Positions 17,263 through 33,630 are shown, counted from the stretch's first letter. The stretch: 64,000 bases of DNA from a bacterium (GCA_963619935.1 CAVEYA010000067.1:38-64037); one strand, 5' to 3'. A program made the numbers and translations. Notes: a model not told the origin generated them from the letters alone.

Positions 17263-17281
17263 TTTTACTTACCTCTTTTTC

Positions 17282-17782
17282 TTATTTTACAGAAAGAATT
17301 GTTGGTGAATAAGCTTCTCCGGTTGGGGATAAAGTTGCCTTTAAATATGGGATTTCATATGTGATTGCACCATCTTTAACAAACTTTTCTAAATAGCCTT
17401 TAACAACAACTGTTTTTCCTGCTAATGAATCTTGTGTGGTATAGTCACCAGTGACACTAGAATCCATAACACCGGAATAGATATAAACTGGTTGACTATC
17501 TGCTTTCATATGGTTTTGGAAATAGCAGTTATAGGAATTATGCTCAGAATTATATCTTGAATCACCTAATACACCTTGCACTGTATATTCCTTATCAGTA
17601 ATTCCGTTATCGTCTAATTTGCTAACGATTTCAATAAGTTGTTCAACAGTAATCGTGTCACCATAATTAGTAGAACCACCAGAGTTACCACCATTACCAC
17701 CTTGGTTATTGTTACCATTTCCACGTGTTGCACATCCCATCATTAAGAAAGCTAATAATGGTAAAGCGAATAATTTTTTCAT
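17282..17782 (-). CDS. OB-fold (BOF/YgiW-like) lipoprotein
   Basis: Signal peptide plus lipobox LMMGC; Gly/Asn-rich linker; OB-like core (YTVQGVL...VYIYSG...GKTVVVKGYL). Confidence 0.65.
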   Translation of the reverse strand: MKKLFALPLLAFLMMGCATRGNGNNNQGGNGGNSGGSTNYGDTITVEQLIEIVSKLDDNGITDKEYTVQGVLGDSRYNSEHNSYNCYFQNHMKADSQPVYIYSGVMDSSVTGDYTTQDSLAGKTVVVKGYLEKFVKDGAITYEIPYLKATLSPTGEAYSPTILSVK

Positions 17783-17849
17783 GTTTTTGTCTCCTAAATA
17801 ATCTTTTACTAGTGTATCAAATCTGTTTTTAAAAGTAAGGCATAAGAAA

Positions 17850-17868
17850 AAAGACCCATAGGGTCTAT
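17850..17868 (-). terminator. bidirectional hairpin terminator AGACCC-ATA-GGGTCT
   Basis: Perfect 6-bp GC-rich stem flanked by A-run and T-run; overlaps the stop codon of the 17865-18290 gene. Confidence 0.5.
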
Positions 17869-18290
17869 TTTTTATTTTTTCTTTTTGCCTGTTCTTCGTT
17901 AATCAGTTTCTTTAAGATTCTTAAATCATGGTCAGTTAATTCAACACTTTTATCAATCATCCCACCAATAGACATCTTACGATAAACAAAGTCATTTACA
18001 GATTCATAATCATGTAATTCTTTTTTAGTTACTGAAGTAGAACGATTAATTGGTGTTTTCTTTTCTTCCTGGACAATGATGTAATCTTTAATTTGTGGAA
18101 TTAATTCTAATAAGTTATATTCATAATCCATCACTAACATAGGATCAAAATAAGATAATGTATCCGTAATTACTTCTGGATAAATACCCACCATCTTAGA
18201 CAATCTTTCTGCGGTGACATATTTAAATTTAGTTTTGCTCATCGCATTTAAATATTTCTTTAATGTGGAAACTGAAGGTTTGTTATTCAT
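17865..18290 (-). CDS. hypothetical cytoplasmic protein (possible wHTH regulator)
   Basis: 141 aa, no signal peptide, Lys-rich C-terminus. Confidence 0.45.
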   Translation of the reverse strand: MNNKPSVSTLKKYLNAMSKTKFKYVTAERLSKMVGIYPEVITDTLSYFDPMLVMDYEYNLLELIPQIKDYIIVQEEKKTPINRSTSVTKKELHDYESVNDFVYRKMSIGGMIDKSVELTDHDLRILKKLINEEQAKRKNKK

Positions 18291-18325
18291 ATCAATACCT
18301 CATTAATATAACAAATTTAGAAGAA

Positions 18326-20599
18326 TTACGCAAAAGTATAGCCATTTTTAAAGGCTGCATAGAAAACATTTCTTGAGAAGAAATATCCTTTTGCGCTTTC
18401 AAGTACCCAATTAGTCTTATAGAAATCACCAACTGTAGAAGTACTGATAAAGCCTGATGAAGGCTTAGTAGTAATGCTTTGCAAACTACTTAAAGTAAAT
18501 GTTTCTATCTTCGTCATTTGATTTGGTGAATAAGCATAATTCCAAGAATCAGTAATCACATAATAAGTCTTAGAACTAGATATAGAAGAAGAACTTATAT
18601 CTGGATAATGAGCATAACTGCCACTTAGACATCTCGATGTTAAAATACTACCAGAAACACTCGCTATTGCGATATCGTTATCGAATGGTAATGATGTATA
18701 TACATCATCATATGTTACAGTGGTCCCACTTGTTGGTAATTCACTTCTAAACTGAGAACCATTCACCGCTAAAGTAACTGTATCATTAATGCCTAATGCT
18801 TTTAGTCTTGCATTTGCTGCATCCACAAAGTATTTGTAATATAAATCAGCGGTGTATTGGTATCCACTACTTTTATTAATACCACTAAAGTTAGTGGCTA
18901 AAACTGCATCAGGTGCACCATCGAGGACTACATCGTTATAGTAATTAAATAATTCTTCCGTTGGAGCGTCATCTTGATAATTTTTACTACCATAATTAGA
19001 AGAAGCAGACGCTAAACTAGGAGTGCCAATCGAAAATGAATTATTATCAAAATCATAGGTAATGCTTAATGAGCACACCATTTGGCCATAGCATCCCGCT
19101 TGAATATGGTACAAACCATCATTATTTGTATAAGAAGTATGAGTATGCCCTTCAAAAACAATATCAACATACCCCGATAACGCACTTGTCGTGTCTGCGT
19201 CTCCACTAGAATGGACCATATAAACAATAATATCCGCTCCATTAGCCTTTAATGCTTCACTTTCTTTTTTAACTAATTCAGTCGCTTCACTACCAGTTTT
19301 AAAAATGTAGTTGCCTTTAACTGAACTAGATATAGAACTATAACAATCACCCACTGAACCAATTAAGCCAATATTTACGCCATTCTTTTCTACAATCATG
19401 CTACTAGTTGAAAGAATATCAAGTTGCTCACTACCATCACTTGTATAGACATTTGTACATAAGGTAGGAAAACGATTATTGCTGATTGTTTCGCCTAATT
19501 GTTCAGTGCCCCAATCAAATTCATGATTTCCCACTATTTGAGCGTCAAAACCCACTTCATTCATCCAATTTGACATAGACACACCATAAGTCATGTTAGA
19601 CCACGCTGATCCTTGATATTGGTCACCACCGGATAATAACAAAGTGCCATCTGGATTATAAAATTCAGTCCATTTAAAGAAAGTGGATAATCTAGCAATG
19701 CCAGGCATTGAAGAATTAACATATTTAGCGTGTCCATGAATATCATTAATATAATTAATATCTATCTTAGTTTGACCGCTTCTAGTTGGCGCAACATAAG
19801 TTAAATCATTTTGATATTCAATCTTAATTGAATAAATAATAAAAGAACCAGCGGAAGCACATATACTAAAGAAAGTATTTTCCGTAGCGTCAGGTGTATA
19901 AGTATAAGTTTGACTACTTGTAATTGCTTCACCACCTTGAGCAGGTGATGTAATTAAAGAGTCTCTTGTTTTAAGTCTTAATTCTCCATATTGGCTCAAG
20001 CGGGCATAAGTAACAGTTATCGATTTTAATCCCGCAATCGCATCAACATTATTAATATAACCAGCGTTATCTATCTTAATATGAGCGTTACTAGTTTTGC
20101 TGACTCCATAGTAATAATAAGAATATTTACTATCAACTTTGTATGTACCACTTGTAGTAATACTACTAATCTCACTAGGAGTATTATTTTTATTTAAATT
20201 GATAACTGAAATATTACTTGGTAAATCGGACGCTTTATTTACTGTAACACTACAAATTGCCGACATATTCCCGTCTTTTGTAGTAACAATAATAGAAGCG
20301 CTACCTTCACTAACGCCTGTTACTAAGCCATTATTAACAGTAGCTACTTTTGTATTTGTACTAGACCAAAGTACTTCTTTATTAGTCGCGTTGCTAGGTA
20401 ATACTGTCGCATTCAATACATAGGTGTCACCAATTGATATATTTATAGAACTGTTACTAAGTTCTACACCGGTAACATTAATTACTTCTCCACTAGGATC
20501 AACGGTGGAACCATCATCTGTTTTATTTCCAAAAGTAAATGAACATCCACTTAAACCAAGAGTGAGTAATAAAGGGATAATGAATAGTTTCTTTTTCAT
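18326..20599 (-). CDS. surface lipoprotein: Big_2 domain + 5'-nucleotidase/metallophosphoesterase (UshA/CpdB-like)
   Basis: Lipobox LSGC; Big_2 (ATVNNGLVTGVSEGSASI); metallophosphatase motifs NDIHGH, GGDQYQGS, GNHEFDWG. Confidence 0.8.
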   Translation of the reverse strand: MKKKLFIIPLLLTLGLSGCSFTFGNKTDDGSTVDPSGEVINVTGVELSNSSINISIGDTYVLNATVLPSNATNKEVLWSSTNTKVATVNNGLVTGVSEGSASIIVTTKDGNMSAICSVTVNKASDLPSNISVINLNKNNTPSEISSITTSGTYKVDSKYSYYYYGVSKTSNAHIKIDNAGYINNVDAIAGLKSITVTYARLSQYGELRLKTRDSLITSPAQGGEAITSSQTYTYTPDATENTFFSICASAGSFIIYSIKIEYQNDLTYVAPTRSGQTKIDINYINDIHGHAKYVNSSMPGIARLSTFFKWTEFYNPDGTLLLSGGDQYQGSAWSNMTYGVSMSNWMNEVGFDAQIVGNHEFDWGTEQLGETISNNRFPTLCTNVYTSDGSEQLDILSTSSMIVEKNGVNIGLIGSVGDCYSSISSSVKGNYIFKTGSEATELVKKESEALKANGADIIVYMVHSSGDADTTSALSGYVDIVFEGHTHTSYTNNDGLYHIQAGCYGQMVCSLSITYDFDNNSFSIGTPSLASASSNYGSKNYQDDAPTEELFNYYNDVVLDGAPDAVLATNFSGINKSSGYQYTADLYYKYFVDAANARLKALGINDTVTLAVNGSQFRSELPTSGTTVTYDDVYTSLPFDNDIAIASVSGSILTSRCLSGSYAHYPDISSSSISSSKTYYVITDSWNYAYSPNQMTKIETFTLSSLQSITTKPSSGFISTSTVGDFYKTNWVLESAKGYFFSRNVFYAAFKNGYTFA

Positions 20600-20709
20600 A
20601 GAAAATCCTCAAACTTATAATACACTTATTTATAAAAATAAACATCTACACATTAGACAAATTTAACTATTATTTTTATTTGCATCAAAATTTTGCCGTA
20701 AATAAGAAC

Positions 20710-20742
20710 AAAAAAATAAAAACGCAACAGTTGCCTGTTACG
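20710..20742 (-). terminator. terminator downstream of tRNA-Lys
   Basis: GCAACAG-TTGC-CTGTTAC hairpin then T-run on the minus strand. Confidence 0.4.
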
Positions 20743-20754
20743 TATTTAGCAATT

Positions 20755-20830
20755 TGGTGATCCCTAAGGGATTCGAACCTTTGACCCACTGATTAAGAGT
20801 CAGTTGCTCTACCAGCTGAGCTAAGGGACC
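20755..20830 (-). tRNA. tRNA-Lys (anticodon CUU), CCA encoded
   Basis: Reverse complement folds as a cloverleaf: acceptor GGTCCCT/AGGGATC, D-arm GCTCAGCTGGTAGAGC, anticodon loop CTCTTAA, T-arm GGTTCGAATCC, 3' ACCA. Confidence 0.9.
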
Positions 20831-20988
20831 AGATGGATTGCTAGATTATAATATATTAAATAAAAATACATTTCAATAGAAAACAATATCAAAGTAAATA
20901 GGCAAAATAGGCTATTTCAAGCAACAAATAATAAAGAATGAATCTTTCACTTATAATAAAAAGATGCGCTCGGTAGCGCACCAATTTA

Positions 20989-22101
20989 TTATTTATAATA
21001 CTGATAAAATTTACTATCGAAGAACTTTGTTTGTTTTTCGCTAGTCGCGTCTACGATATTAGTTGTCCCTTTTTCGTAATAGTTTTTGCTTCTACCAGCA
21101 CCCACCATAGTCATATCATTTACACCATCAGTAGTGAATGTCATATCGCCATTAATACCATTCCAATAAACATTTGTGGTCGTTTTTTTAATTCTTCTCA
21201 CTGTTGATGAATTAGGATGATTTTGTTCACCATTACCACTACCTAACACTACTTGGTTAGGAGCGCATACGCTATCTAACATTGCCGTAGAAATGAAAAT
21301 CATTTCAGGTCTAGTCCAATCTAAGAAATCATATCCCATTGATGTTGAACTAGCGTGATGTGTTGCTTTTAATAAAATACGCTTATTCTCATCCTTAAAT
21401 AGTTTTTCATGATTAGCAATAATGGATTTTTCACCATATGTGGTATCAATATCACCACACATCACGATATTCCAATATTTATATTCAAGAACAAAGGATA
21501 CTGATGTGGTATTAGGATTGTCTGTTCCACATGATGAATTAGGAAATACATCATCATAGTAATAATCATTCTTAAGCCAACGTAATGTTAAATCATTATC
21601 TTTATCAATTTTTAATGTTTTGCCCACTTTCATTTGAGAAAGAACACTATTGTAGGTAGCACCACTATTTACCCAACTATTTCTTTTGTTAATGTATTGA
21701 TTCACATAACTAGAATTAGAAATATGATCCGTTCCACTAGTGTTATATGTATAACCATAATCCACTATTTGGTTAACTTTAAAATCATCTAACGCTCCCG
21801 CAATAATACCACCAATATGGTCACCATGTGGGTGAGTGACTACTAATAAATCAATTGTTTTATCAGTAATTTTATTCTTTAAAACTTCTTTTACATGACT
21901 CGCATCATCTCTACTACCAGAATCAACAACAATATCATAATTACCATATTGAATAAGTGTTGATTCACCATATTCGTCGCTCATTTCAATAGAAGTTAAT
22001 GTTAAAGGATTACCAGGTTCGTAATTAGTTTTCTTGCTTCCACAACCTATTAATGAAGTAGTTAGCAAAGAAAGGATAAGACCATATAATTTTATATTCA
22101 T
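20989..22101 (-). CDS. metallo-beta-lactamase-fold surface lipoprotein (probable nuclease/hydrolase)
   Basis: Lipobox LIGC; MBL motif LLVVTHPHGDHIGG. Confidence 0.75.
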   Translation of the reverse strand: MNIKLYGLILSLLTTSLIGCGSKKTNYEPGNPLTLTSIEMSDEYGESTLIQYGNYDIVVDSGSRDDASHVKEVLKNKITDKTIDLLVVTHPHGDHIGGIIAGALDDFKVNQIVDYGYTYNTSGTDHISNSSYVNQYINKRNSWVNSGATYNSVLSQMKVGKTLKIDKDNDLTLRWLKNDYYYDDVFPNSSCGTDNPNTTSVSFVLEYKYWNIVMCGDIDTTYGEKSIIANHEKLFKDENKRILLKATHHASSTSMGYDFLDWTRPEMIFISTAMLDSVCAPNQVVLGSGNGEQNHPNSSTVRRIKKTTTNVYWNGINGDMTFTTDGVNDMTMVGAGRSKNYYEKGTTNIVDATSEKQTKFFDSKFYQYYK

Positions 22102-22178
22102 AAAAATACCTCGAAATCATTATAACAAAAAAGAGTGTTCACGAGGAACACTCTTGATTGCAATATAATTACTTTCTT

Positions 22179-23621
22179 TTATTTAGCAACAGTGTAGACT
22201 TCAATTTTATTGACTCTGCATTGTTTGCCTAAAACAAACACTAAGGAAGTAGCTTCTGCATCTAAAATAATAGTAGCAGTTAAAGCTTCTGTATCTTGTG
22301 TGAATGAAGCACCTGTAAGTGTTGGTTCATTATCAGTTCCGCTAAATGAATATTTAGCACTATCATAGCTAATAACTACCTTTTTAAATGCAGCAGTATA
22401 GCTAATTGTGTCTTGAGAACCAGCATATAATCTAACAGATGTATAGGTTGATAACCATAAATTACAAGCAGTAGAAGATTTATTTTGTTCGTTAAGTAAT
22501 GTGACACCCTTATCTGAATAAGTAACACGTTTACTAGCAGAAATTTCATCATTAACTACCATATCAGTGTTTTTATTAAAGCTTAAAGTAGCAGCTAATG
22601 TGTAATTAGTAGCAGCAGCAGTAACTGTAACGTTGAATGTGGCAGAAACACCTTCTTTAGCAGTTGCGGTAATAACAACATCACCAGTAGCGACACCTGT
22701 AACTTTACCAGATGCAGAAACAGTAGCTTTAGTTTCATCAGAAGAAGACCAAGTAACTTTTTGTTTAGCTTCAGCTGGTGCAACAGTAGCGCTTAATTGT
22801 AAAGTTTCGTTAACTTTAACACTTGTTGCGTCACCTGCAGAAGTAACTGTAACGCCTGTTGGTTCAGCCCAGACTTTAGCTTCTGTAACTGTGTAAGAAG
22901 AGCCTTGACCTAAAACCATACGGCAGTTGCCACTTGATGTAGCGGCTAACATACCGACGATTTCTAATTTGTCGCCTTGATTGATTGTACCAGCTAAGTT
23001 AGCGATATCTTCGGCTGGGAGAAATTTTTCAACTTTGACAGCTAAAGCAGTATTAGCACTATCTGTCATTTTGAAATTCATGTATAAGTCACTTGATAAA
23101 GCAGTGGATGGAATTGTGTAGTCAGCATCAGCAACTAATTCAATCTTAGCTAATGTACCAGCATTTGCGTTTACAAGATTTGCTGGATCGCTAACAACGA
23201 CTGGATTAACTGTTTCGCCAACTTCAGCAATTGTTAAACATTTTGCATCAACATCATAACCATCAGGATAAGCTGTTAATTGAATAGAACCAGAATATGC
23301 GGATGATTGAGCATAGATTTCAACATATGAACCAAGTTTGTGTTCACCTAAATCTTCATTTCCGGTTTTTTCAGTATTTGTGTTGAAGTTATAGCAGTAT
23401 AAGAATTCACCATTACGGTAAATTGCAGTTGTGCTACCACTGTTCCAAACAACTGTTCCACGGACTTTGTAGTATTCACCGACTGTGCCGGCTTTTACTT
23501 GTGCGAATGTGGATTCGCCTTCAGTTAATTCCTCTTCCCAAGGTTTTACTTCCTTTTTGTTACCGCAACCTGTCAATAAGGCAACAGCAAGGAATGGTAA
23601 TAGAATAATTTTTTTATTCAT
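22179..23621 (-). CDS. surface lipoprotein with N-terminal OB-fold and Big_2 domain
   Basis: Lipobox LTGC; OB-like YKVRGTVVW...VEIYAQ; Big_2 KVTWSSSDETKATVSASGKVTGVATGDVVITA. Confidence 0.65.
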   Translation of the reverse strand: MNKKIILLPFLAVALLTGCGNKKEVKPWEEELTEGESTFAQVKAGTVGEYYKVRGTVVWNSGSTTAIYRNGEFLYCYNFNTNTEKTGNEDLGEHKLGSYVEIYAQSSAYSGSIQLTAYPDGYDVDAKCLTIAEVGETVNPVVVSDPANLVNANAGTLAKIELVADADYTIPSTALSSDLYMNFKMTDSANTALAVKVEKFLPAEDIANLAGTINQGDKLEIVGMLAATSSGNCRMVLGQGSSYTVTEAKVWAEPTGVTVTSAGDATSVKVNETLQLSATVAPAEAKQKVTWSSSDETKATVSASGKVTGVATGDVVITATAKEGVSATFNVTVTAAATNYTLAATLSFNKNTDMVVNDEISASKRVTYSDKGVTLLNEQNKSSTACNLWLSTYTSVRLYAGSQDTISYTAAFKKVVISYDSAKYSFSGTDNEPTLTGASFTQDTEALTATIILDAEATSLVFVLGKQCRVNKIEVYTVAK

Positions 23622-23789
23622 TATGAATTATTTCCTCCTTTTCTAATACCATGAATTTGTTCATAAATAATGATTAAAAACAAATAAATAATTATCGATA
23701 ACCTTACTTACATTGTTCTTATATTATTATTCATGTCCACTAATAGTTTCGCACAATTTATCACTTTATTAAATAAATATTTAAGAAAA

Positions 23790-23830
23790 TAAAAAAATAA
23801 CGGGACCCCGTTTTGGGATACCCGTTATTA
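23790..23830 (-). terminator. Rho-independent terminator after the 23844-25004 gene
   Basis: AATAACGGG(23797-23805)...CCCGTTATT(23821-23829) 9-bp stem, then T-run on the minus strand. Confidence 0.55.
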
Positions 23831-23843
23831 ATGTAGTTTATTA

Positions 23844-25004
23844 TTAGTCTGCTAATGAGAAGCAAGCTGTGCCTTTCACAGGAGCAAGGTATGGAGCGTT
23901 ATACCAGGTTAAGTGACCCGTAAAGTTCACTTTTGTGCTATCACATGTCCATGTGGCAAACATTGCTTGTAAAGCACTAAGTTCACCTAAATGGTAGGAT
24001 ATAGACATTCCAACTGAAGCACCAGTAGAATCTTTAAACCAAACATAAGTATGGCTGCTTAAAGTTGTATATTCATTAGTGTGTGTAGATGGAATAGTAG
24101 TATTAGAACCACCGATAGTAACAAATGTTAAGTTATTCATCTTTACTAAGGCACCATCTAATGTCTTTAAAGTGGTTTCGTTGAATGTACCAGCGGCAAT
24201 TTCAGTATAGTCAGGTTGGCTAACTGTGTATGGCTTGTTATCAACAAGCACTTCTGCAGCTGTAACTCTTCTCACAAGTGTTGGTTTAACTTCCATTAAA
24301 CCATTATATGGGCTAGCAAAGCCAGCCACTTGCACTAAATCACCAACTTTTAAGTTATATGTAGTCCAGCAATTACTTAATTTATTAGCATAGAGCATTA
24401 AGCCAGCCTTACCATCAGCGATGTAAACACCACTATATTCATGGTCTTCACCATGTGCACCACTAATATAACCATAAGTAATAATATTGTCAGATTCTTG
24501 AATAGTACCAGCGGCTAAACCTGCACGATAATCAGCAAGTTTATAAGTTGTACCAGTTAAAGTTGTTTTGTTCATGTAGGTGTGATATGTTAACTTGCCT
24601 TCAAATTTTTTCCATTTCATGGTTAAGGTAATATCTGAAGAATATTCATCTTCTGATGCGTACACACTATCAGGAACTAATAATACACGAGAAGTATCTT
24701 TTGAATAAGCAGATTTACTCCAGTGGCTATCAGAGAAAGACCAACTAATTTCTGGTTGTACAGTCGCATTTTTTCCTTTACGTCCAGGAACTGTGTAAGT
24801 ATATTTCTTGACAGCATTAAGAGAATCGCCACCTTCTAATTGTTTAGTGGTACCTGGTTCAAATAAACCACCGCTAGGATCAAGTAATAATGTGGAATCA
24901 CTGATCATTGTGTCAAAAATTTCTTGATCAGACATTCCGTTACTACCACAACCAGCTAATGAACAAACGATTAATGGTAATAAGAATAAATATTGTTTTT
25001 TCAT
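23844..25004 (-). CDS. surface lipoprotein with OB-fold-like domain
   Basis: Lipobox LAGC; OB-like YSGVYIADGKAGLMLYANK...VGDLVQVAGF. Confidence 0.55.
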   Translation of the reverse strand: MKKQYLFLLPLIVCSLAGCGSNGMSDQEIFDTMISDSTLLLDPSGGLFEPGTTKQLEGGDSLNAVKKYTYTVPGRKGKNATVQPEISWSFSDSHWSKSAYSKDTSRVLLVPDSVYASEDEYSSDITLTMKWKKFEGKLTYHTYMNKTTLTGTTYKLADYRAGLAAGTIQESDNIITYGYISGAHGEDHEYSGVYIADGKAGLMLYANKLSNCWTTYNLKVGDLVQVAGFASPYNGLMEVKPTLVRRVTAAEVLVDNKPYTVSQPDYTEIAAGTFNETTLKTLDGALVKMNNLTFVTIGGSNTTIPSTHTNEYTTLSSHTYVWFKDSTGASVGMSISYHLGELSALQAMFATWTCDSTKVNFTGHLTWYNAPYLAPVKGTACFSLAD

Positions 25005-25025
25005 AGAGAATACCTTTCTATTCTT

Positions 25026-26696: not shown

Positions 26697-26707
26697 ATAT
26701 AACCTTA

Positions 26708-28318
26708 TTATTTCTTAATATAATCAGAAAGTTTTTTCAAAACATCGTTAATGGCTTCTTGTGGGGTTTTACCTTCTAAGAAGACATAGCCAGGAATGGA
26801 AGCAACTTCTGTACGAATAGAAGCAGAACCAGCGAATGGTTGATCGACGAATTTTGTCCAATTTTCACTTTCTTTAACATAGTAATCAACGTTAATCTTC
26901 GCTGTTTGTCCTTTAATACTTTCCGCCTCATTAGCAGAAGAATAAGAATCTTCTAACCAAGTCCTATAATCGACATAGTCCTCAGTTACGCCTTCCCACA
27001 TGCCACCATTTTCAGCATAAGAACAAGATGGGTAATAAGAAGTTTGACTACATAAGTAACCATTCGCGTACTTGGTTAAGAATTTTAAAAGCATCCAAGA
27101 AGCTAATCTTTCTTTTTGGCTACCTTTATCTAATAAGGCTAAGTTAGCACCTTGAGAAATAACATACTTGTTTTCTTTGTCCACATAAGGAACTGGAGCA
27201 GCTTTAATTTCAAAAGCGTTACCAGCAGGTGCGGAGTTAGCGACACCAGCGGATGAACCTAATGTCATAACTGTCTTAGAGGCTTTAAATGGATTAGAAC
27301 CATATTTTGCTTCACCCCAGTCACTTGGAATGCCAAATGTATTGTTATCATACATCGCTTTTAAACGATTAAGGCCATTAATGGTTTCTTGACTATTAAA
27401 GGAGACATAACCATGTCTATCTTCTTTATCATAATAGGTATATTCACCACCATTTTGTCTCACAGTGGTAATAAATAAGTTTGCTTGAGAGTCATAAGAG
27501 AATGGCTTAAAGCATTCTTTTTTAGCGTGTCCTTCACTACCCCATTCAAAAACACCGGTTAAATTTAAGACAATGTCATCAGTGTTTGTAGGAGCCTTTT
27601 TAGTCACGCTACCATCCTTTAATAAATAATTATCGTAGACACCCTTTGTCTTTAATAAATTAAGAATTTCTAAACCAACACCATTGAGTTCATCATAAGT
27701 GGCAGGAACATAGATTTTGTTCTTTAAATCTTCTTGGTTAGCACACCAATCAAAGAAAGTGGAGTTATAAATCAATACTTCAGTAGATTTGTTAAATGGA
27801 ACACCTAATGTATAAGGATTACCATCATTATCAAATTCAATGGATTGATTTTCTTTCATGTAGTCAGAGTAGAAATCAGAAATTTTAAAGGATTCACCTT
27901 CCGGTTCAAACACACTATGAACATCATTTTCGAAATAATAATTTAAACGAACAATAATGTCTTGATTCACATAACTTGCAAAGTGGTCAGGATAGCCAAC
28001 AATTAAGTTTGGATATTTGCCAGATGTTGCCGCTAATGTGGTAGCGTTTAAAACGTTATCATATGAACCTTTTGATTCATATCTCACCTTAACACCAGTT
28101 AAAGCGGTAAATTCATCTAAAAGAGGTTCAAGTGCTTCATTAATTGAACTACCAAATCCGGTCCAAAATTCAATTGTTGTGCCACTAACATCAGCAGTAA
28201 AGTCAATATCATAAGCAAAATTATTTCTCCAGCTAGCCTTACAGGCTGAGGTCGCAACCGCGACCCCACCTAATAAGCTCACAGCTAGAACGGATGGAAT
28301 GATTTTATTTGTTTTCAT
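26708..28318 (-). CDS. ABC transporter substrate-binding lipoprotein (large, CUT1/MalE-like), paralog 1
   Basis: Lipobox ATSAC; 536 aa; clear paralog of 28343-29908 (shared FWTGFGSS, GYPDHFA, VISQGANLAL). Confidence 0.7.
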   Translation of the reverse strand: MKTNKIIPSVLAVSLLGGVAVATSACKASWRNNFAYDIDFTADVSGTTIEFWTGFGSSINEALEPLLDEFTALTGVKVRYESKGSYDNVLNATTLAATSGKYPNLIVGYPDHFASYVNQDIIVRLNYYFENDVHSVFEPEGESFKISDFYSDYMKENQSIEFDNDGNPYTLGVPFNKSTEVLIYNSTFFDWCANQEDLKNKIYVPATYDELNGVGLEILNLLKTKGVYDNYLLKDGSVTKKAPTNTDDIVLNLTGVFEWGSEGHAKKECFKPFSYDSQANLFITTVRQNGGEYTYYDKEDRHGYVSFNSQETINGLNRLKAMYDNNTFGIPSDWGEAKYGSNPFKASKTVMTLGSSAGVANSAPAGNAFEIKAAPVPYVDKENKYVISQGANLALLDKGSQKERLASWMLLKFLTKYANGYLCSQTSYYPSCSYAENGGMWEGVTEDYVDYRTWLEDSYSSANEAESIKGQTAKINVDYYVKESENWTKFVDQPFAGSASIRTEVASIPGYVFLEGKTPQEAINDVLKKLSDYIKK

Positions 28319-28342
28319 TGATCATATCCTTTCTAAGCGTAA

Positions 28343-29908
28343 TTACGCTTTCACGTAGTCAGTAATCTTTCTATAAACAGCATCAAGAATAGCTTGGTCG
28401 TCGTTATTATATTCGCCAGCAAAGATATATCCTGGGATATAGCCAATTTCAGTACGAACAGAAGAAGAACCACGGAAGCCTGGATCAACGAATTTACTCC
28501 AAGATTCAGTAGCATAAACTTGAGAGTTAATCTTTGCGGATTCTTGTTGTAATATTGCGTTTCCATCAAATGAATCATTTAAGTATTCTTGATATTCATC
28601 AGAATTATAAGCATAGTTACATGTTGGGAAATAACCTGTACCAGCAGCGAATGCACCGTTGGCTTGTTGAGATAAGTAAACGATTAATTTCCATGCAGCA
28701 ACTTTTTGTTTTTCAGTACCCTTATTGAATAAGGCAAGGTTAGTGCCTTGAGAAATAACATATGCTTTTGTTAAGTCTTTTTGTGGAACTTGTGCGGCTT
28801 TTGTGGTGAATGTTGTACCAACAACATTGCTTAAACCACCAGTAGAGCCAACATTTAATAAGGATTGACCATTCTTAAATGGGTTAGAACAATAAGATTC
28901 TTCACCAAATGTCGCAGCAATACCAATTAAACCATTGTTCCATAAGTCACGTAACATACCCATTGCTTCTAAGGTCTTTTCTTTATTACCTTCATCATTA
29001 AAGACAGCGTAACCTTTACCAGTATTTGTGGTATCGACTTCGGTATATGTACCACCATATTGTCTTACTAATGAAATGAATAAGTTTTCTGTAGAGTCAT
29101 AAGAGAAGAAATGGAAATTTTCTTCAGTAACAGCAGAACCATCATAAACAACAGTTGTGTTAGCGGCAGTAGCAGCATCAGTTGTGTCATAAACATTACC
29201 ATCAGCGCCTAAGTATTTGCCATAAACACCTTTGGCTTTGAATAATTGTTTAACTGCTAAACCAACAGACTTAACTTCAGCCCATGTTTTTGGAACAAAG
29301 ATATCAGTTGTGGCAGTAGCAGCCCATTCAAAGAAGTTACTGTTATAACACATAACTTCAGAAGATTTATTAAATGGTAAACCTAAGACATAGCCTGTAC
29401 CATCTTCTTTAAATTCTAATGTTTCGTTTTCAGTTAAATAGTCTGTATAGAAATCACTATAATTTAAAACTTTAAGTCCATTAGCGTCTAAACCATCAGC
29501 TTTTTCACGTTTATGATCATTTTCAATAAGACCATCTAAACGGAGCTGAATATTACTGGTAATGTAACCAGCAAAGTGATCTGGATAACCAACCGCTACA
29601 TTTGCGTATTCTTTCTTTGTAGCAGATAAGTTAATTGCAGTTTGAAGATTGGAATAACCACCTTTGGTTTCATATTCCACGGTGATACCTGTCTTTGTCT
29701 CAAAATCATCGATAAGTGTTTCAAGAGTTTCATTAACTGAAGAACCAAAACCTGTCCAGAATGAGATTGTTGTTCCTCTTGTGTCAACTGTGACATCAAG
29801 GTCATATGTGTCAGCGGAGCCTAAACCGCCGGTTTGACAAGCTGACATACCTAATGTTGCAATTAAGCAAACAGGAGCAAGGATTGATAAAAGCTTTTTA
29901 CTTTTCAT
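28343..29908 (-). CDS. ABC transporter substrate-binding lipoprotein, paralog 2
   Basis: Lipobox GMSAC; 521 aa. Confidence 0.7.
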   Translation of the reverse strand: MKSKKLLSILAPVCLIATLGMSACQTGGLGSADTYDLDVTVDTRGTTISFWTGFGSSVNETLETLIDDFETKTGITVEYETKGGYSNLQTAINLSATKKEYANVAVGYPDHFAGYITSNIQLRLDGLIENDHKREKADGLDANGLKVLNYSDFYTDYLTENETLEFKEDGTGYVLGLPFNKSSEVMCYNSNFFEWAATATTDIFVPKTWAEVKSVGLAVKQLFKAKGVYGKYLGADGNVYDTTDAATAANTTVVYDGSAVTEENFHFFSYDSTENLFISLVRQYGGTYTEVDTTNTGKGYAVFNDEGNKEKTLEAMGMLRDLWNNGLIGIAATFGEESYCSNPFKNGQSLLNVGSTGGLSNVVGTTFTTKAAQVPQKDLTKAYVISQGTNLALFNKGTEKQKVAAWKLIVYLSQQANGAFAAGTGYFPTCNYAYNSDEYQEYLNDSFDGNAILQQESAKINSQVYATESWSKFVDPGFRGSSSVRTEIGYIPGYIFAGEYNNDDQAILDAVYRKITDYVKA

Positions 29909-29926
29909 AATTGTTTGTCCTTTCTT

Positions 29927-30847
29927 TTATCCTTTAATACCGGAACGTGATACACCACGCATAATATATTTTCTAAAAATTAAGAAGAATATAAATAGCG
30001 GAATTGTCGCGAATAATGAACCAGTCACTTTGGCTGGATCATCAGTGCTAAATTCACTACTTTGGAACTTCGCCATTAAGCCGTTAGAGACTAAGTGCAT
30101 ATCATTACCAAAGTATGGGTTAGTACCGGATGCCACTAATTGTGGCCAAATATAAGCATTCCACGCACCCATGAGGGAGAGAATCATAATTGTTACAATT
30201 GTTGGCATAGCAATTGGAATCATACATCTCCATAAATAGGAGAAATGCCCATAGCCATCCACTTTTGCAGCTAAGAATAATTCATTAGGAATTTGTTGGA
30301 AGGTTTGTCTTAAATAGAAGATATAGAAGACAGAAACGCCGTGCACTAAGATTAATGCAGCGTATGTATCTTTCCAGCCTAAGGCCATTGTGGTTTGGAA
30401 ATTAGTAATCATCATCATTTCACCTGGAATCATCATTGTGCCAAGTAAAATAGTGAAGATGACGTTTTTACCTTTGAATTCAACTCTCGCAAAAGCGAAA
30501 GCGGCTAATACGGAGGTAACAACCGTAAATACTGTTGAGCATACAGCAACAATAATTGTATTGAGGTAATAAGTACCAAAGTCACCAGATTTACCCATGA
30601 CTTTCACAAATTGTTCAAAGGAGAAGTTAGTAGAATTAAGGAACAAGACTAATTGTCCTTTTTGTTCTTCTAAGTTGTATGCAGTTGTGGATTTAAATGA
30701 GGTAATTAACATGTAATAGAAAGGGATAACGATAAATAAGCCCATTAATGTTAAGAAACCATAGAGTAAAACTTGAGTAATAATCTTTTTTGCTTTATAG
30801 GTGCGCATTTGTGCTGCACTAGCAAAGTATACTTCATGTTCAGCCAT
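29927..30847 (-). CDS. ABC transporter permease (MalG/UgpE-like)
   Basis: 6 TM, EAA-like loop AAKVDGYGHFSYLWRCMIP. Confidence 0.85.
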   Translation of the reverse strand: MAEHEVYFASAAQMRTYKAKKIITQVLLYGFLTLMGLFIVIPFYYMLITSFKSTTAYNLEEQKGQLVLFLNSTNFSFEQFVKVMGKSGDFGTYYLNTIIVAVCSTVFTVVTSVLAAFAFARVEFKGKNVIFTILLGTMMIPGEMMMITNFQTTMALGWKDTYAALILVHGVSVFYIFYLRQTFQQIPNELFLAAKVDGYGHFSYLWRCMIPIAMPTIVTIMILSLMGAWNAYIWPQLVASGTNPYFGNDMHLVSNGLMAKFQSSEFSTDDPAKVTGSLFATIPLFIFFLIFRKYIMRGVSRSGIKG

Positions 30848-30862
30848 ACTTATCTCTCCTTT

Positions 30863-31957
30863 CTAGTAATGCACTCTTGATTTGCTTACTGCAAATTGAA
30901 CAAGAGTTAATAACAAAATAACAATCAATAAAATAACGGAACCAGCAGCGGCACGGCCGATAGCGGATTCATTAGTAGATTGCATATATTTGTAGATGAA
31001 ACCAACGATAGTAATCCACTTTGTACCGTCAGTACCACCAAAGTCAGTAGCACCACCACCGAATAAGGCGATGATTTGTGAATAAGATTTACAGGCACCA
31101 ATAAATGATGTAATCGTAATATACAAAATCTGTGGTGAGAGTAATGGAATCGTGATTCTACGGAAGATAGTTGCCTTTGAGGAACCATCAATACGCGCAG
31201 CATCATAATATTGTTTATCAATTGTGGCTAAGCCACTCATGAAGACGAGAATTTTGAAAGCGATACCATTCCAAATGGAATAAATAACGATAACAACAAA
31301 CATGCTCCATTTATTGGCAGAATCACCTAACCAGTTCACTGGAGAGGCGCCAAACCAACCGATGAGGGTATTAAATAGACCAGCCGAACCATCAGAGAAC
31401 ATGACATTAAACACCATGCCCAAAGCGATTGAGTTAGTCACATATGGTAGGAAGAATACTGTTTGATAGAAACCTTGTAAAGGCTTAATCGAATGTAAAC
31501 AGACAGCAAGTAATAAACCAACAAGAATTGTTAATGGAACTTCCACAATAACAATAATCGCGGTGTTACCCATGGCTTGCCAGAATAATGGGTCGCTAAA
31601 TACTTTAACGTAGTTAGTAAAACCAATTGATTCAACAATACCAGAACGAGAATTGCTAAAGGAAGCTATGTAGTTAACAATCGCTAAAGATGAGTTACTA
31701 CCACCAACCCAATAGAAGTTATTAATGAATGAGATCATGATTGAGTTGATAATTGGATAAATCATAAACACAATCAAGAAGATTAAAGCTGGGATTAAAG
31801 CAATCCAACCCTTTAACCATTCAGGCATAATCCATTTGTGTTGCTTAACTTCAAGATAACCTTTATTAGTTACAGAATCTAAATAAGGGGTTTCTAAAGT
31901 TGCTGTGCCGTTAGCATCAACGAGTATTTCTTCATTCCTTTCTTTTAAATTTGCCAT
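30863..31957 (-). CDS. ABC transporter permease (MalF/UgpA-like)
   Basis: EAA loop DAARIDGSSKATIFRRITIPLL. Confidence 0.85.
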   Translation of the reverse strand: MANLKERNEEILVDANGTATLETPYLDSVTNKGYLEVKQHKWIMPEWLKGWIALIPALIFLIVFMIYPIINSIMISFINNFYWVGGSNSSLAIVNYIASFSNSRSGIVESIGFTNYVKVFSDPLFWQAMGNTAIIVIVEVPLTILVGLLLAVCLHSIKPLQGFYQTVFFLPYVTNSIALGMVFNVMFSDGSAGLFNTLIGWFGASPVNWLGDSANKWSMFVVIVIYSIWNGIAFKILVFMSGLATIDKQYYDAARIDGSSKATIFRRITIPLLSPQILYITITSFIGACKSYSQIIALFGGGATDFGGTDGTKWITIVGFIYKYMQSTNESAIGRAAAGSVILLIVILLLTLVQFAVSKSRVHY

Positions 31958-31981
31958 AATTTTTAACCAAATAACTTAAAG

Positions 31982-33481
31982 TTATTTAATCCTTTCGCCA
32001 GATTCTTCAAAAACATAGAAACGTTTTGCTGAGAAATGAAGTTCATCTTTACCAATAACATCTTTCCATGTTTCACTTGGAATAATAATCTTCACATTAG
32101 AAGATTGTCCTTTAATGGAACCAATCACAGAGACATCACGTCCAACGTGTTGGACAAAGTTCACATCAACTGGTAATTTACCTTTTGCATCGAGTGTAAA
32201 TGCTTCTGGACGAACACCGATTTTCACGGTGCGGTCACTCTTAATAACTTCTTCGTCTTCTTCCACTACTTCAAGTTGAGGATTAAGTAAAGCGCGTTTG
32301 GCTTTATGATCTAAACCTTCAAGTTTTTCTGGATGTGCTTCTAAGTCAGCGCGATATTCTTCTGGAGTAATTCTAGTGCCTTTAACAAATGTGTATTGAT
32401 GATGGATAAAACCGTGATAATCTTCTTCATAACATTTGTCAGTATCAAAGACATGTCCATCAACATATAATTTGCCGCCTTTGATTTCTCCATCAAAAAT
32501 ATTGATAGCTGGGGAACCAAGGAATTTAGCGACGAATAAATTAACTGGTTCATCATAAACTTTTTGTGGTTCATCAATTTGTTGAATAACACCAAAGTTC
32601 ATAACAACAATAACGTCAGAAATAGACATTGCTTCTTCTTGGTCGTGTGTAACGAAAATTGTAGTAATGCCAGTTTCTTTTTGAATACGTCTAATTTCTT
32701 CACGAGTTTGTAATCTCAAACGAGCATCTAAGTTAGATAATGGTTCATCTAACAATAAAACACGTGGAGATTTAGCTAACGCTCTTGCGATAGCGACACG
32801 TTGTTGTTGACCACCAGATAATTCTTTAGGTTTTCTTTCTAAATAAGGTTCGATATCGACTAATCTCGCCATTTTATGTGCGATTTCATCCTTTTCTTCC
32901 TTAGTTAAACGTCTCTTAGTTAATTGAGCGTATCTAACAGGATCTTGCTCTTTTACAGCTTGAAGTTCAGCAGTTGCTTTATTTAAGGCGCCTTCTGCTT
33001 CTGCCAATTCTGCAGCTGCGGTTTCAACCGCATTTGCATATTCAGACAAATCTTCTTCAGCAGCCTTTTGAGCTTTAGCAAGTGCCTTTTGAGCACCTGT
33101 AAGATTTCTCTGTGCTTCCTTCACACGAGTTTTGAATGCTGATAATGGGTGAGGGAAACGTACATTGTCTAGTGGGAAAGTGATATTTTGTTTCACGCTA
33201 AAATGTGGATATAAAGCGTAGTTTTGGAAAACTAAACCGATACCACGATTTTCTGGTGGAACATTTGTCACATCTTCATCACCAAACCAAATATGGCCTT
33301 CTGTTGGTTTATGTAAACCCGCAATCATGTAAAGAGTTGTTGATTTACCACAACCTGAAGGACCAAGTAAACCGACTAACTTGCCATCAGGAACAACAAA
33401 AGACATGTCACTAACAGCAGTAGTCTTGGAACCTTTCTTACCAATAAAAGTCTTAGTAAGATGTTCAATTTTTACTTCCAT
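31982..33481 (-). CDS. ABC transporter ATP-binding protein (MalK/UgpC-like) with about 100-aa coiled-coil insertion
   Basis: Probable true start MEVKIEHL at 33481 with AGGAG RBS; Walker A GPSGCGKST, signature LSGGQQQRVA, Walker B LLLDEP. Ala/Glu/Lys-rich helical insert between Q-loop and signature. Confidence 0.85.
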   Translation of the reverse strand: MEVKIEHLTKTFIGKKGSKTTAVSDMSFVVPDGKLVGLLGPSGCGKSTTLYMIAGLHKPTEGHIWFGDEDVTNVPPENRGIGLVFQNYALYPHFSVKQNITFPLDNVRFPHPLSAFKTRVKEAQRNLTGAQKALAKAQKAAEEDLSEYANAVETAAAELAEAEGALNKATAELQAVKEQDPVRYAQLTKRRLTKEEKDEIAHKMARLVDIEPYLERKPKELSGGQQQRVAIARALAKSPRVLLLDEPLSNLDARLRLQTREEIRRIQKETGITTIFVTHDQEEAMSISDVIVVMNFGVIQQIDEPQKVYDEPVNLFVAKFLGSPAINIFDGEIKGGKLYVDGHVFDTDKCYEEDYHGFIHHQYTFVKGTRITPEEYRADLEAHPEKLEGLDHKAKRALLNPQLEVVEEDEEVIKSDRTVKIGVRPEAFTLDAKGKLPVDVNFVQHVGRDVSVIGSIKGQSSNVKIIIPSETWKDVIGKDELHFSAKRFYVFEESGERIK

Positions 33482-33630
33482 AGAGATAACTCCTTTCTCT
33501 TTGTAATTATGGAATAATTCACAATATGAGTTTAACACAATATTTTTACTCACAAAAGAAATAATTGTGTGTATGTATATGTGTGTAAAAAAACTAAAAA
33601 AGGTCAACCATATATTTAGTTAACCTTCTT

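Follow-up and report, generated by a model that had tools for sequence, protein, structure and literature searches.

The Bacillus subtilis protein YhcR is a surface, sortase-anchored, sugar-nonspecific nuclease that carries OB-fold, SNase and 5'-nucleotidase (Metallophos and 5_nucleotid_C) domains on one polypeptide and is not known to be linked to an ABC importer. In mycoplasmas, an operon encodes the binding lipoprotein MslA/P80, an SNase lipoprotein (mhp379, MAG_5040, MGA_0676 or MBOVPG45_0310), an ABC ATPase and two permeases; its genes are co-transcribed in M. agalactiae, DNA is bound by MslA in single- as well as double-stranded form, and a model of binding, cutting and import has been proposed (PMC3585158, PMC4045577). 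DNA-degradation loci have also been described in Ca. Izemoplasmatales (Wasmund et al., 2021, PMC8289736), including Xianfuyuplasma coldseepsis zrk13 (PMC8397711) and Hujiaoplasma nucleasis zrk29 (PMC10470597), where degradation and use of DNA were demonstrated experimentally and homologues of substrate-binding proteins (SBPs) adjoin nucleases in other genomes.

Here we describe a related locus in a window of 64,000 nucleotides (the whole stretch of DNA that was analysed) from an uncultured low-GC bacterium related to Mollicutes, a gut or rumen organism to which MAGs from rumen and gut, with the labels Bacilli or Erysipelotrichaceae, are closest. We consider it probable (about 0.7) that this is a chromosomal surface nucleic-acid scavenging locus with a seven-gene core as its working unit and separately transcribed accessory lipoproteins. 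Such a locus extends the scavenging system already described for mycoplasmas and Izemoplasma and is not a new kind; an earlier note on this DNA, made from the sequence alone, had taken the operon type to be undescribed, but both the Izemoplasmatales loci (PMC8289736, PMC8397711) and the mycoplasma bind-cut-import model (PMC3585158, PMC4045577) were already published.

Compared by gene content, the core has the same part list as the mycoplasma operon, namely an SBP-like lipoprotein, a surface SNase lipoprotein, a Ugp/sugar-type ATPase and two permeases, but the order is circularly permuted (ATPase-permease-permease-SBP-SBP-SNase here, SBP-SNase-ATPase-permease-permease there), two SBPs of ~58 kDa replace one of ~80 kDa, the SNase domain stands at the N-terminus ahead of two OB domains instead of at the C-terminus as in MAG_5040 (residues 182-343 of 390), and an extra OB lipoprotein lies inside the operon. 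With the Izemoplasmatales loci, likewise from wall-less relatives of Bacilli, it shares the grouping of ABC transporters with multiple secreted nucleases and phosphohydrolases; the phosphate (Pst) transporters, EddB, DNase/RNase endonucleases and large lamin-tail-domain protein found there are absent here, and whereas import of nucleosides or nucleobases was the authors' inference, SBP relatedness at our locus points to phosphorylated fragments. YhcR has the same domain set for extracellular nucleic-acid breakdown, which is here split over separate lipoproteins beside a transporter.

The predicted core operon and its putative nuclease

All genes described below lie on the minus strand. The predicted core operon runs from 33481 to 23844 in the order ATPase-permease-permease-SBP-SBP-SNase-OB lipoprotein. 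Its first gene encodes an ABC ATPase of the UgpC/MalK type (31982..33481; Pfam ABC_tran E 8.7e-36, NCBIfam UgpC 2.6e-101) whose helical subdomain contains an insert, rich in Ala, Glu and Lys, of some 85 aa. The earlier note's interval had run to 33607, where a TTG lies; that this is not the start is shown by the AAAGGAG ribosome-binding site at ATG 33481 and by the N-termini of homologues, which begin MEV(K/R)IEHL. Permease A (30863..31957; BPD_transp_1 E 1.6e-17) follows after 24 nt, with 36-88% identity to its counterparts in loci reaching across it, and permease B (29927..30847; BPD_transp_1 E 2.8e-16) after a further 15 nt. Next come the substrate-binding lipoproteins SBP1 (28343..29908; SBP_bac_8 E 9.2e-23, lipobox MSAC), a member of the CUT1 UgpB/U3G clade, and SBP2 (26708..28318; SBP_bac_1 E 8.1e-10), which are paralogues, as had been claimed, with 41% identity. 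The lipoprotein nuclease (25026..26696) combines an N-terminal SNase domain (Pfam E 2.8e-10) with two OB-like domains; the equivalents of the catalytic residues R35, E43 and R87 are all present, and the Ca-ligand D40 is an invariant Asn in this nuclease family, so metal use and activity may differ. The last core gene encodes OB386 (23844..25004), a lipoprotein whose OB fold is structurally supported.

The extent of the core is predicted from gaps and terminator-like hairpins. Intergenic distances are 11-24 nt inside the core and 77-222 nt elsewhere in the locus, and a scan found 17 terminator-like hairpins, compared to 8.5 +/- 3.5 in shuffles, with hairpins placed exactly at the ends of OB386, the accessory lipoprotein Big2_480, the MBL-fold lipoprotein, the tRNA, a 141-aa gene and the small lipoprotein lip166. 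The one closing the core, with its T-run, lies at 23799..23819; past it there is a 222-nt gap and then the Big2_480 gene with a separate ribosome-binding site. Gaps and hairpins together predict about six transcription units, the seven-gene core and five separate units downstream, not the single elaborate operon that had been proposed. Co-orientation, which the earlier note had pointed out, carries no information, since the minus strand is the default across the first ~52 kb, with almost every gene from 371 to 52600 of the window on it. A lipobox occurs in eight of the locus proteins (8 of the 11 lipobox ORFs of the whole window) and not in the ten previously counted.

Synteny lends the core further weight. 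The related loci number 64, come from different species-level genomes and all belong to MAGs of uncultured Bacilli, Anaeroplasmataceae or Izemoplasma; 62 of them keep the ATPase, permeases, SBP(s) and SNase together, a recurrence that exceeds chance as judged by comparison of the loci, and Izemoplasma MAG loci L058, L060 and L061 have a homologous ATPase-permease-permease-SBP-SNase core. OB386 follows the SNase gene in about 25 loci, the MBL and OB lipoproteins recur solely in closer relatives, and there are two SBPs in closer loci but one in distant ones. Conservation of the locus, which the earlier note had proposed to check, holds for the core, and the accessory genes vary between relatives.

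Accessory lipoproteins and a housekeeping block

Big2_480 (22179..23621; Big_2 E 1.1e-15) consists of a probable N-terminal OB domain, Big_2 and a C-terminal domain; the OB assignment draws moderate support from residues 44-118, which hhalign aligns with the nuclease's OB domain (probability 71%, E 3.6e-5). The gene has its own terminator at 22155-22131, and homologues occupy the equivalent position in L007 and L067. The MBL-fold lipoprotein (20989..22101; Lactamase_B E 2.3e-11) retains the motifs HPHGDH(90), GDI(216) and HHAS(248) and is a putative nuclease or phosphodiesterase; a strong terminator follows its gene at 20982-20963, and homologues with 52-67% identity are found in about 17 close loci. 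It resembles the C-terminal metallo-beta-lactamase (nuclease) domain of ComEC in its HxHxDH, GD and HH(G/A)S motifs and matches TIGR00361 and the ComEC structures 9vc6 and 9ic4 weakly, but it is a stand-alone 370-aa lipoprotein devoid of a competence channel and scores 25 bits against a family cut-off of 190. A further lipoprotein (18326..20599) joins Big_2 (2.8e-17) to a metallophosphoesterase domain of the 5'-nucleotidase/CpdB family (Metallophos 2.3e-6; 5_nucleotid_C at 22.7 bits, slightly under the Pfam cut-off of 23.6) with intact DIHG, GDQYQG, GNHE and GHTH motifs; NCBIfam models match it as well. This phosphoesterase occurs in 3 lineages among about 64 loci; elsewhere its catalytic domain appears in that region only in L014 and L029. 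The small lipoprotein lip166 (17282..17782; lipobox MMGC) has no Pfam match even at E<=10 and no recognisable fold; in L014 its domain forms a fusion with a 5'-nucleotidase catalytic domain, and a 61%-identical domain lies within the same cluster in L067.

The tRNA-Lys(CTT) gene at 20755..20830, correctly located within the interval by the earlier note, has its own promoter-like site and terminator. It stands at the downstream edge of the lipoprotein cluster in 14 of 21 relatives scanned, and where loci extend far enough it is followed by the 141-aa gene and PFOR. The 141-aa gene (17865..18290), which had been skipped, encodes a protein that is cytoplasmic, lacks a lipobox and has a winged helix like that of the Rex N-terminus (NCBIfam E 1e-5); it is syntenic with PFOR in most loci and is probably outside the module. 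Synteny thus indicates that tRNA-Lys, the 141-aa gene and PFOR form a conserved housekeeping block around which lipoprotein genes insert, and the tRNA is a housekeeping neighbour instead of a functionally embedded part of the module. The region downstream of the core differs in nearly every relative and holds many Big_2 lipoproteins devoid of other recognisable domains, which could be mere surface proteins; it contains an IS200-like transposase ORF in L007 and is adjoined by a recombinase and defence genes in L067.

Every ORF claimed on the minus strand was recovered at the coordinates given, and Pfam upheld the calls for the SNase, MBL, 5'-nucleotidase/metallophosphoesterase with Big_2, SBP, permease and ATPase domains. 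What had been counted as four nucleic-acid-degrading chemistries comes to three catalytic ones, with their residues and motifs in place as listed above, the OB fold being a binding fold; the three OB calls fared unequally, that for OB386 holding structurally, that for Big2_480 holding moderately and that for lip166 staying tentative.

Probable importer cargo and alternative readings

The closest solved relative of SBP1, of SBP2 and of their family profile is 7C0F, a Thermus thermophilus protein that binds the dinucleotide uridylyl-3'-5'-phosphoguanosine (UpG), and UgpB is the next match of SBP1 and also a match of SBP2. With the family profile, 7C0F (E 4.8e-25) is ~8 orders of magnitude ahead of E. 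coli UgpB (6X84 and 4AQ4, 5e-17 and 9e-17), and the best sugar binders reach only 1e-7 to 3e-4, so the clustering with characterised sugar binders that the earlier note had named as counter-evidence is not seen. The match to 7C0F is remote, consisting of three aligned segments of low identity; GGY, PFNKS and TGY.P motifs are common to both, but the proteins here are lipoproteins about 100-115 residues longer than 7C0F or UgpB, with a large insertion in mid-protein. Those nucleoside ABC importers that have been characterised are known to rely on binding proteins of the BmpA/PnrA type, a family other than that of the CUT1 SBPs. Phosphate coordination in the CUT1 UgpB/U3G clade depends on two Tyr and two Ser (PMC12718374), and the GGY, FNKS, GS and GY.P positions invariant across 17 SBPs are of the same number and kind. 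Because both SBPs are closest to 7C0F and UgpB and not to sugar binders, phosphorylated nucleic-acid fragments are the more likely cargo than nucleosides, with the caveat that SBP specificity drifts easily.

From gene content, lipoboxes, catalytic motifs, two protein folds, synteny and predicted unit boundaries, we infer the activities, the cargo and the order of steps as follows. OB domains would retain extracellular nucleic acid, DNA or RNA, at the surface of the membrane, the SNase domain would cut it into mono-, di- and short oligonucleotides, and SBP1 and SBP2, as members of the phosphate-ester-binding CUT1 branch, would capture phosphorylated fragments and deliver them to the permease. 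In some lineages the accessory lipoproteins (the ComEC-like MBL, the phosphoesterase, the Big_2/likely OB protein and the small lipoprotein) may add capacity, the phosphoesterase releasing nucleosides and phosphate or trimming terminal phosphates. Of the surface pathway suggested earlier, nucleic-acid scavenging in conjunction with a CUT1 ABC importer is supported, the catalytic motifs being intact, and the linear route to nucleoside import is not, given the SBP relationships to phosphodiester and phosphomonoester binders and the rarity of the nucleotidase.

That linear route belongs to a reading in which all 12 protein-coding genes and the tRNA, from 17282 to 33607, form one concerted operon for OB binding, endo/exonuclease cleavage, dephosphorylation and nucleoside import. 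The genes are adjacent and co-oriented with intact catalytic motifs, and some relatives again have MBL, nucleotidase and lip166-like domains close to the core; yet we judge it improbable, as co-orientation is the genomic default in the window, six units are set apart by hairpins and gaps of 77-222 nt, one gene encodes a cytoplasmic winged-helix protein, the tRNA has its own signals, the SBPs group with phosphate-ester binders, characterised nucleoside ABC importers being known to use another family, and no step can be obligatory that depends on a nucleotidase found in just 3 of about 64 loci. The opposite division, in which the seven-gene core alone handles nucleic acids and the genes at 22179, 20989, 18326 and 17282 encode unrelated surface proteins in a recombination-prone region by the tRNA, is unlikely but the most credible of the alternatives. 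It would account for the variability of the region, its abundant Big_2 lipoproteins, its mobile and recombination genes (the L007 transposase and L067 recombinase), the terminator behind each accessory gene and the want of a recognisable fold in lip166, but not as readily for an MBL lipoprotein kept at 52-67% identity in about 17 loci, for accessory enzymes of precisely the types expected for nucleic acids with motifs intact, for the lip166-nucleotidase fusion in L014 or for the resemblance of the Big2_480 N-terminus to the OB domain of the nuclease.

The remaining alternatives concern what the core does. It might resemble Ugp and import phospholipid head groups, as glycerol-3-phosphate or glycerophosphodiesters, with the SNase-like lipoprotein serving that pathway or moonlighting: UgpB is the sole NCBIfam match of the SBPs and UgpC the top match of the ATPase, the UgpB proteins of E. 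coli and M. tuberculosis rank with the nearest relatives of solved structure, and M. pneumoniae mutants in MPN133, an SNase-like lipoprotein, grow poorly on glycerol (PMC4766277), which suggests that the role differs in at least one homologous system. We hold this to be improbable as well, since the dinucleotide binder outranks UgpB, the UgpB alignment ends short of the region with the two glycerol-clamping Trp residues, domain searches at the locus found no GlpQ-type phosphodiesterase, and a nuclease with two OB domains shares the operon with an OB lipoprotein in dozens of genomes. Least probable is that the surface nucleases and OB proteins support DNA uptake in transformation, or break down DNA that is foreign or part of a matrix (defence, biofilm, NET-type escape), and have no part in nutrition. 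The MBL domain is similar to the ComEC nuclease domain, and roles in virulence and NET degradation have also been ascribed to SNase homologues of Mycoplasma (PMC9740415, PMC12115388); however, the locus holds no ComEC channel domain, ComEA, ComF or pilus genes, in 62 of 64 loci operon structure ties the nuclease to an ABC importer for small solutes, and the relatives are free-living or commensal, from gut and sediment.

Besides these genes, the scavenging core may have one further associate, an RDD-family membrane protein (33631..34845; Pfam RDD E 2.7e-13) encoded directly upstream. The RDD gene has its own terminator-like hairpin at 33631-33596 and is frequently duplicated; about 50 loci, some of which have no tuf next to it, retain it upstream of the ATPase.

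Layout and predicted transcription units

The best explanation of the locus, to which we assign a probability of about 0.7, is that it is a surface nucleic-acid scavenging locus made up of a seven-gene core and separately transcribed accessory genes. The surface harvesting function, as proposed in the earlier note, is well supported by domains, motifs, folds and conserved synteny. The window (translated cleanly with table 11; G+C ~35%) carries nearly all of its genes between 371 and 52600 on the minus strand, so the co-orientation that had been read as a sign of an operon is uninformative. In minus-strand reading, rpoB/C, rpsL, rpsG, fusA and tuf lie upstream of the locus, which then runs, all on the same strand, through genes for an RDD-family membrane protein (33631-34845, by Pfam), an ABC ATPase (31982-33481; ABC_tran), two permeases (30863-31957 and 29927-30847; BPD_transp_1), the binding lipoproteins SBP1 and SBP2 (28343-29908 and 26708-28318; SBP_bac_1/8), an SNase lipoprotein (25026-26696), the 386-aa lipoprotein OB386 (23844-25004), the 480-aa Big_2 lipoprotein Big2_480 (22179-23621), an MBL lipoprotein (20989-22101; Lactamase_B), tRNA-Lys(CTT) (20755-20830), a lipoprotein with Big_2 and metallophosphoesterase domains (18326-20599; Metallophos), a 141-aa cytoplasmic protein (17865-18290), the 166-aa lipoprotein lip166 (17282-17782) and PFOR (13539-17081). 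Pfam and NCBIfam searches bore out the SNase, Lactamase_B, Big_2, Metallophos, SBP_bac_1/8, BPD_transp_1 and ABC_tran calls. A lipobox is present in all proteins here named lipoproteins; these eight account for 8 of the 11 lipobox ORFs of the whole window, which also holds an Lgt gene at 8033-9544.

The arrangement described in the earlier note is largely real, with corrections to the gene count, to one gene that does not encode a lipoprotein, to the ATPase start and to the OB-fold assignments. The gene list had missed the 141-aa protein, which lacks a signal peptide and is similar to the N-terminal, DNA-binding part of Rex. The ATPase ORF was listed from a TTG at 33607, but an AAAGGAG ribosome-binding site precedes the ATG at 33481 and all homologues start at the matching position, placing the start at 33481. 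Between its Q-loop region and its signature motif, the ATPase also contains a coiled-coil-like insert of ~85 aa that is rich in Ala, Glu and Lys (~32900-33160, minus strand); this insert varies in presence and length among relatives, whose ATPases span 391 to 569 aa, and those of L002 and L067, two of the homologous loci, lack it.

The genes from the ATPase to OB386 are separated by 11-24 nt (11 nt between SBP2 and the SNase gene), and the remaining gaps measure 35-222 nt. A hairpin scan returned 17 sites, compared with 8.5 +/- 3.5 in shuffled sequence, and minus-strand hairpins with T-runs lie exactly 3' of eight genes: tuf (34928-34907), RDD (33631-33596), OB386 (23819-23799), Big2_480 (22155-22131), MBL (20982-20963), tRNA-Lys (20743-20722), the 141-aa gene (17866-17852) and lip166 (17260-17240). 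Within the ATPase-to-OB386 run, the only terminator-like hairpin is the one after OB386. Taken together, the short gaps and hairpin positions argue for a predicted seven-gene core operon followed by five predicted units, namely Big2_480, MBL, the tRNA (preceded by a promoter-like site, TTGAAA-17-TATTAT), the nucleotidase with the 141-aa gene, and lip166, rather than the single elaborate operon proposed earlier. An Rfam scan of 16.9-35.2 kb found no riboswitch or other element besides the tRNA.

Several observations concern the surroundings. We considered and rejected a horizontally transferred island, since the G+C of the locus (0.32-0.36) is in line with the rest of the window and the tuf-to-PFOR synteny recurs in relatives. 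Between rpoC and rpsL, two tandem lipobox ORFs of ~530 aa (39487-41082 and 41167-42750, minus strand) gave weak matches to Peptidase_M6 (immune inhibitor A). Outside the locus, the plus strand encodes a 430-aa lipoprotein (58980-60272; lipobox LVGC) that combines an Endonuclease_1 domain (E 1.5e-38) with an OB-like N-terminal sequence pattern, indicating that the surface nucleases of this organism are not confined to one island.

Nuclease, OB-type and phosphoesterase lipoproteins

Lipoproteins devoid of catalytic residues had been named in advance as the finding that would speak against a harvesting role. The SNase lipoprotein (lipobox LTGC) has the SNase fold, and alignment by hhalign of its family profile to S. 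aureus nuclease A revealed that the catalytic residues Arg35, Glu43 and Arg87 correspond to R101, E109 and R168, which are invariant in 61 homologues. The Ca2+ ligands Asp21 and Thr41 are kept as D79 and T107, and the Asp40 position is taken by Asn106, which lies in the motif G(I/V)NTPEST and hardly varies across the family. The SNase domain was detected only through Pfam, hhalign and fold comparison; a phmmer search of the whole protein against the PDB gave no match, and its C-terminal part had no useful Pfam match at E<=10. Its secondary structure contains two further beta1-3/helix/beta4-5 units, at ~267-354 and 432-542. Just past the lipobox, the family has an invariant TP.TD...F motif (residues 37-60) and, besides the lipid-anchor Cys, two nearly invariant cysteines (Cys26/Cys223), a pattern in the sequence that suggests that a docking segment is conserved and that a disulfide may form.

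Of the three proteins to which the earlier note had assigned OB folds, OB386 retains that assignment. For Big2_480, whose N-terminus has no Pfam match at E<=10 and whose C-terminal part returned nothing useful, residues 44-118 (residues 21-95 of the N-terminal piece submitted) aligned to the middle OB domain of the SNase protein (modelled; 261-356) with an hhalign probability of 71% across 75 columns (E 3.6e-5), and the N-terminus aligned to OB386 with E 1.2e-4. For lip166, hhalign gave probabilities of 10% to the C-terminal OB domain of the SNase protein and 1% to OB386 (weak, register-consistent), and there was no Pfam match at E<=10 and no match of its profile to the PDB. Two relatives connect lip166 with the module: L014 has the lip166 domain joined to the catalytic domain of a nucleotidase, and in L067 a 61%-identical copy directly follows ATPase-perm-perm-SBP-SBP-SNase-OB-Big_2. 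The L014 protein (15755-18379) is an 874-aa lipoprotein with a lip166-like domain, Metallophos and 5_nucleotid_C, and it carries three His/Cys-rich repeats (H.H...C.H...C..C) that look like small zinc-binding units. We also suspected that the nucleotidase, Big2_480 and small lipoproteins from relatives have a recurrent C-terminal module in common, but phmmer gave it no support.

The MBL lipoprotein retains its His ligands, in HPHGDH (90) and the ComEC-like HHAS (248), together with GDI (216). It matches ComEC models and structures weakly (25.1 bits to TIGR00361, cut-off 190) and, unlike ComEC/Rec2, this 370-aa lipobox protein has no membrane channel domain. In the phosphoesterase, the metal-binding motifs DIHG (286), GDQYQG (325), GNHE (357) and GHTH (484) are complete; Metallophos scores 28.6 bits (Pfam cut-off 21.5), and 5_nucleotid_C scores 22.7 bits over 42 matched profile positions, just under its cut-off of 23.6. 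The central part of the protein had no useful Pfam match at E<=10, and its closest NCBIfam models, all with scores far under the cut-offs, are 5'-nucleotidases, UshA and 2',3'-cyclic phosphodiesterase/3'-nucleotidases. As SNase-type enzymes leave 3'-phosphates, a 3'-nucleotidase activity would fit at least as well as a 5' activity. The SNase with its two OB domains, the OB lipoprotein, the ComEC-like MBL protein and the nucleotidase are candidate ectodomains for biochemistry.

Binding proteins and candidate cargo

Wall-less, genome-reduced Bacilli have to obtain nucleic-acid precursors by scavenging, and in guts and sediments extracellular DNA makes up a major pool of nutrients. In mycoplasmas, ABC transporters linked to nucleases have been on record since 2007; to our knowledge, their cargo has never been measured. 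Searched singly, SBP1 and SBP2 both found the 7C0F series as best PDB match, with UgpB proteins next. A family profile of 17 sequences searched against the PDB gave the same ranking: 7C0F (E 4.8e-25), which the supplement of PMC12718374 lists as a Thermus thermophilus protein binding the dinucleotide uridylyl-3'-5'-phosphoguanosine (UpG), then E. coli UgpB (E 5e-17 to 9e-17), 9LFF (E 1e-15), the glycerophosphocholine (GPC)-binding UgpB of M. tuberculosis (E 5e-8) and sugar-binding CUT1 proteins (E 1e-7 to 3e-4). The SBPs are thus nearer to the CUT1 phosphate-ester clade (UgpB, GPC- and U3G-binding proteins) than to the sugar binders, and the clustering with characterised sugar-binding proteins that had been set beforehand as a refutation was not seen (4.8e-25 for 7C0F versus 1e-7 at best). 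In the phosphate-ester clade, two Tyr and two Ser coordinate the phosphate (PMC12718374). Y85 (GGY), S182 (FNKS), S355 and Y426 (GY.P) are invariant in the 17 SBPs, and 7C0F shares the motifs holding the GGY, FNKS and GY.P positions; by position arithmetic, these four residues would be the published phosphate ligands.

The proximity of the SBPs to a dinucleotide-binding protein and UgpB suggests uptake of phosphorylated fragments. Nucleoside import, the end step of the pathway put forward earlier, is its least supported part, and a phosphorylated cargo (NMPs, dinucleotides or short oligonucleotides) would fit the SBP sequences better than nucleosides. The nucleotidase, rare among relatives, is more likely a side branch releasing nucleosides and phosphate, or a trimming enzyme. 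We keep a Ugp-like transporter role as a rival: UgpB proteins stand second to 7C0F in the PDB searches, and growth of M. pneumoniae on glycerol is poor when the SNase-like lipoprotein MPN133 is mutated (PMC4766277). Beyond phosphorylated cargo in general, we entertain, tentatively and with more doubt than confidence, that the paired SBPs may define widespread, uncharacterised ABC importers of intact di- or short oligonucleotides supplied by a dedicated OB-SNase nuclease. If so, the conserved nucleic-acid salvage route of these Mollicutes-related bacteria would be oligonucleotide rather than nucleoside import, possibly extending to the long-unresolved nuclease-linked transporter of Mycoplasma. 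The most useful by-product of the analysis is this link of the SBPs to the dinucleotide/UgpB clade, which makes the question of nuclease-linked import in Mollicutes addressable by a simple binding experiment.

Described systems and conservation among relatives

Judged by the part list in published descriptions, the predicted core resembles the Mycoplasma operon, in which a surface SNase lipoprotein likewise adjoins ABC importer genes and an SBP-like lipoprotein, a Ugp/sugar-type ATPase and two permeases form one unit. Co-transcription in M. agalactiae joins the ABC genes with those for the SNase MAG_5040 and the SBP-like lipoprotein P80; the hominis group conserves this arrangement, for which "steal and import" was put forward as a model (PMC3585158). 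For M. gallisepticum, PMC4045577 describes the P80 homologue MslA as binding ss and dsDNA and proposes that it passes oligonucleotides to the nuclease, with the ABC transporter importing. The order ATPase-perm-perm-SBP(-SBP)-SNase is that of Mycoplasma, SBP-SNase-ATPase-permease-permease, in circularly permuted form (PMC3585158). The "DNA-degradation locus" of Izemoplasmatales combines several secreted nucleases, a phosphohydrolase and an ABC importer, as here (PMC8289736, PMC8397711); SBP homologues adjoin nucleases in other genomes (PMC8289736), and the cultured X. coldseepsis (PMC8397711) and H. nucleasis (PMC10470597), which have such loci, degrade DNA or RNA. Neither a Pst transporter nor an EddB/lamin-tail nuclease, both features of the Izemoplasmatales loci, was found among the ORFs of 13.5-38.4 kb. 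Since these Mycoplasma and Izemoplasmatales reports already cover both the nuclease-transporter pairing and its multi-enzyme form (PMC3585158, PMC4045577, PMC8289736, PMC8397711), the novelty of operon type that had been supposed is not supported. The locus differs from the published ones in its lineage (uncultured Bacilli of rumen and gut), in its permuted order of genes, in joining the SNase to two OB domains with an OB lipoprotein encoded in the same operon, and in having a second SBP and a ComEC-like MBL lipoprotein that stands alone.

Homologues of the SNase lipoprotein number in the hundreds and are nearly all metagenomic. A scan taking one genome per species yielded 63 distinct loci, to which we added three loci of two SNase homologues. 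All but two are from uncultured MAGs labelled Bacilli, Erysipelotrichaceae, Mollicutes, Anaeroplasmataceae or Izemoplasma, the most distant of these labels being Anaeroplasmataceae and Izemoplasma; the two exceptions, a Clostridium luticellarii isolate contig (L065) and a Chloroflexi MAG (L066), match part of the SNase domain only. ATPase-perm-perm-SBP(-SBP)-SNase genes are co-located in the same order in 62 of 64 loci, and the nuclease-transporter pairing is thus conserved across many uncultured rumen and gut lineages. The RDD gene lies upstream of the ATPase in ~50 loci, including some without adjacent tuf, and its product may be part of the system; in relatives it often occurs as two tandem paralogues. 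Other features are more restricted: OB386 immediately follows the SNase gene in ~25 loci, the MBL lipoprotein is found in ~17 close loci, SBP duplication is confined to closer loci, and tuf upstream with the 141-aa gene and PFOR downstream marks the closer clade. Among the related loci, the phosphoesterase catalytic domain occurs only in the window, L014 and L029; further apparent nucleotidase matches were rejected as the Big_2 module alone.

The tRNA had been regarded as embedded in the operon. Of the 21 relatives scanned, 14 have tRNA-Lys(CTT) where the lipoprotein cluster ends downstream; in loci that reach far enough, the 141-aa gene and PFOR come after it, directly or one small gene apart. 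This conserved position makes the tRNA a neighbouring gene at the border of a variable lipoprotein region, rather than an embedded part, with lipoprotein genes inserted around it: in the window, the nucleotidase gene separates the tRNA from the 141-aa gene and lip166 separates the latter from PFOR, and L008, L009 and L027 have similar insertions of other lipoprotein genes. The 141-aa gene is directly upstream of PFOR and downstream of tRNA-Lys across the clade; its product, which resembles the Rex winged-helix N-terminus alone and lacks the Rossmann domain, may be a regulator of PFOR. The interval from SNase/OB386 to the tRNA varies in nearly every genome and holds mainly Big_2 lipoproteins without a further recognisable domain. 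An IS200/IS605-type transposase-like ORF lies between the OB386 and Big_2 homologues in L007 (10712-11170), and in L067 (11556-19500) a serine recombinase gene, followed by methyltransferase, GmrSD and GIY-YIG genes, comes right after the lip166-like gene.
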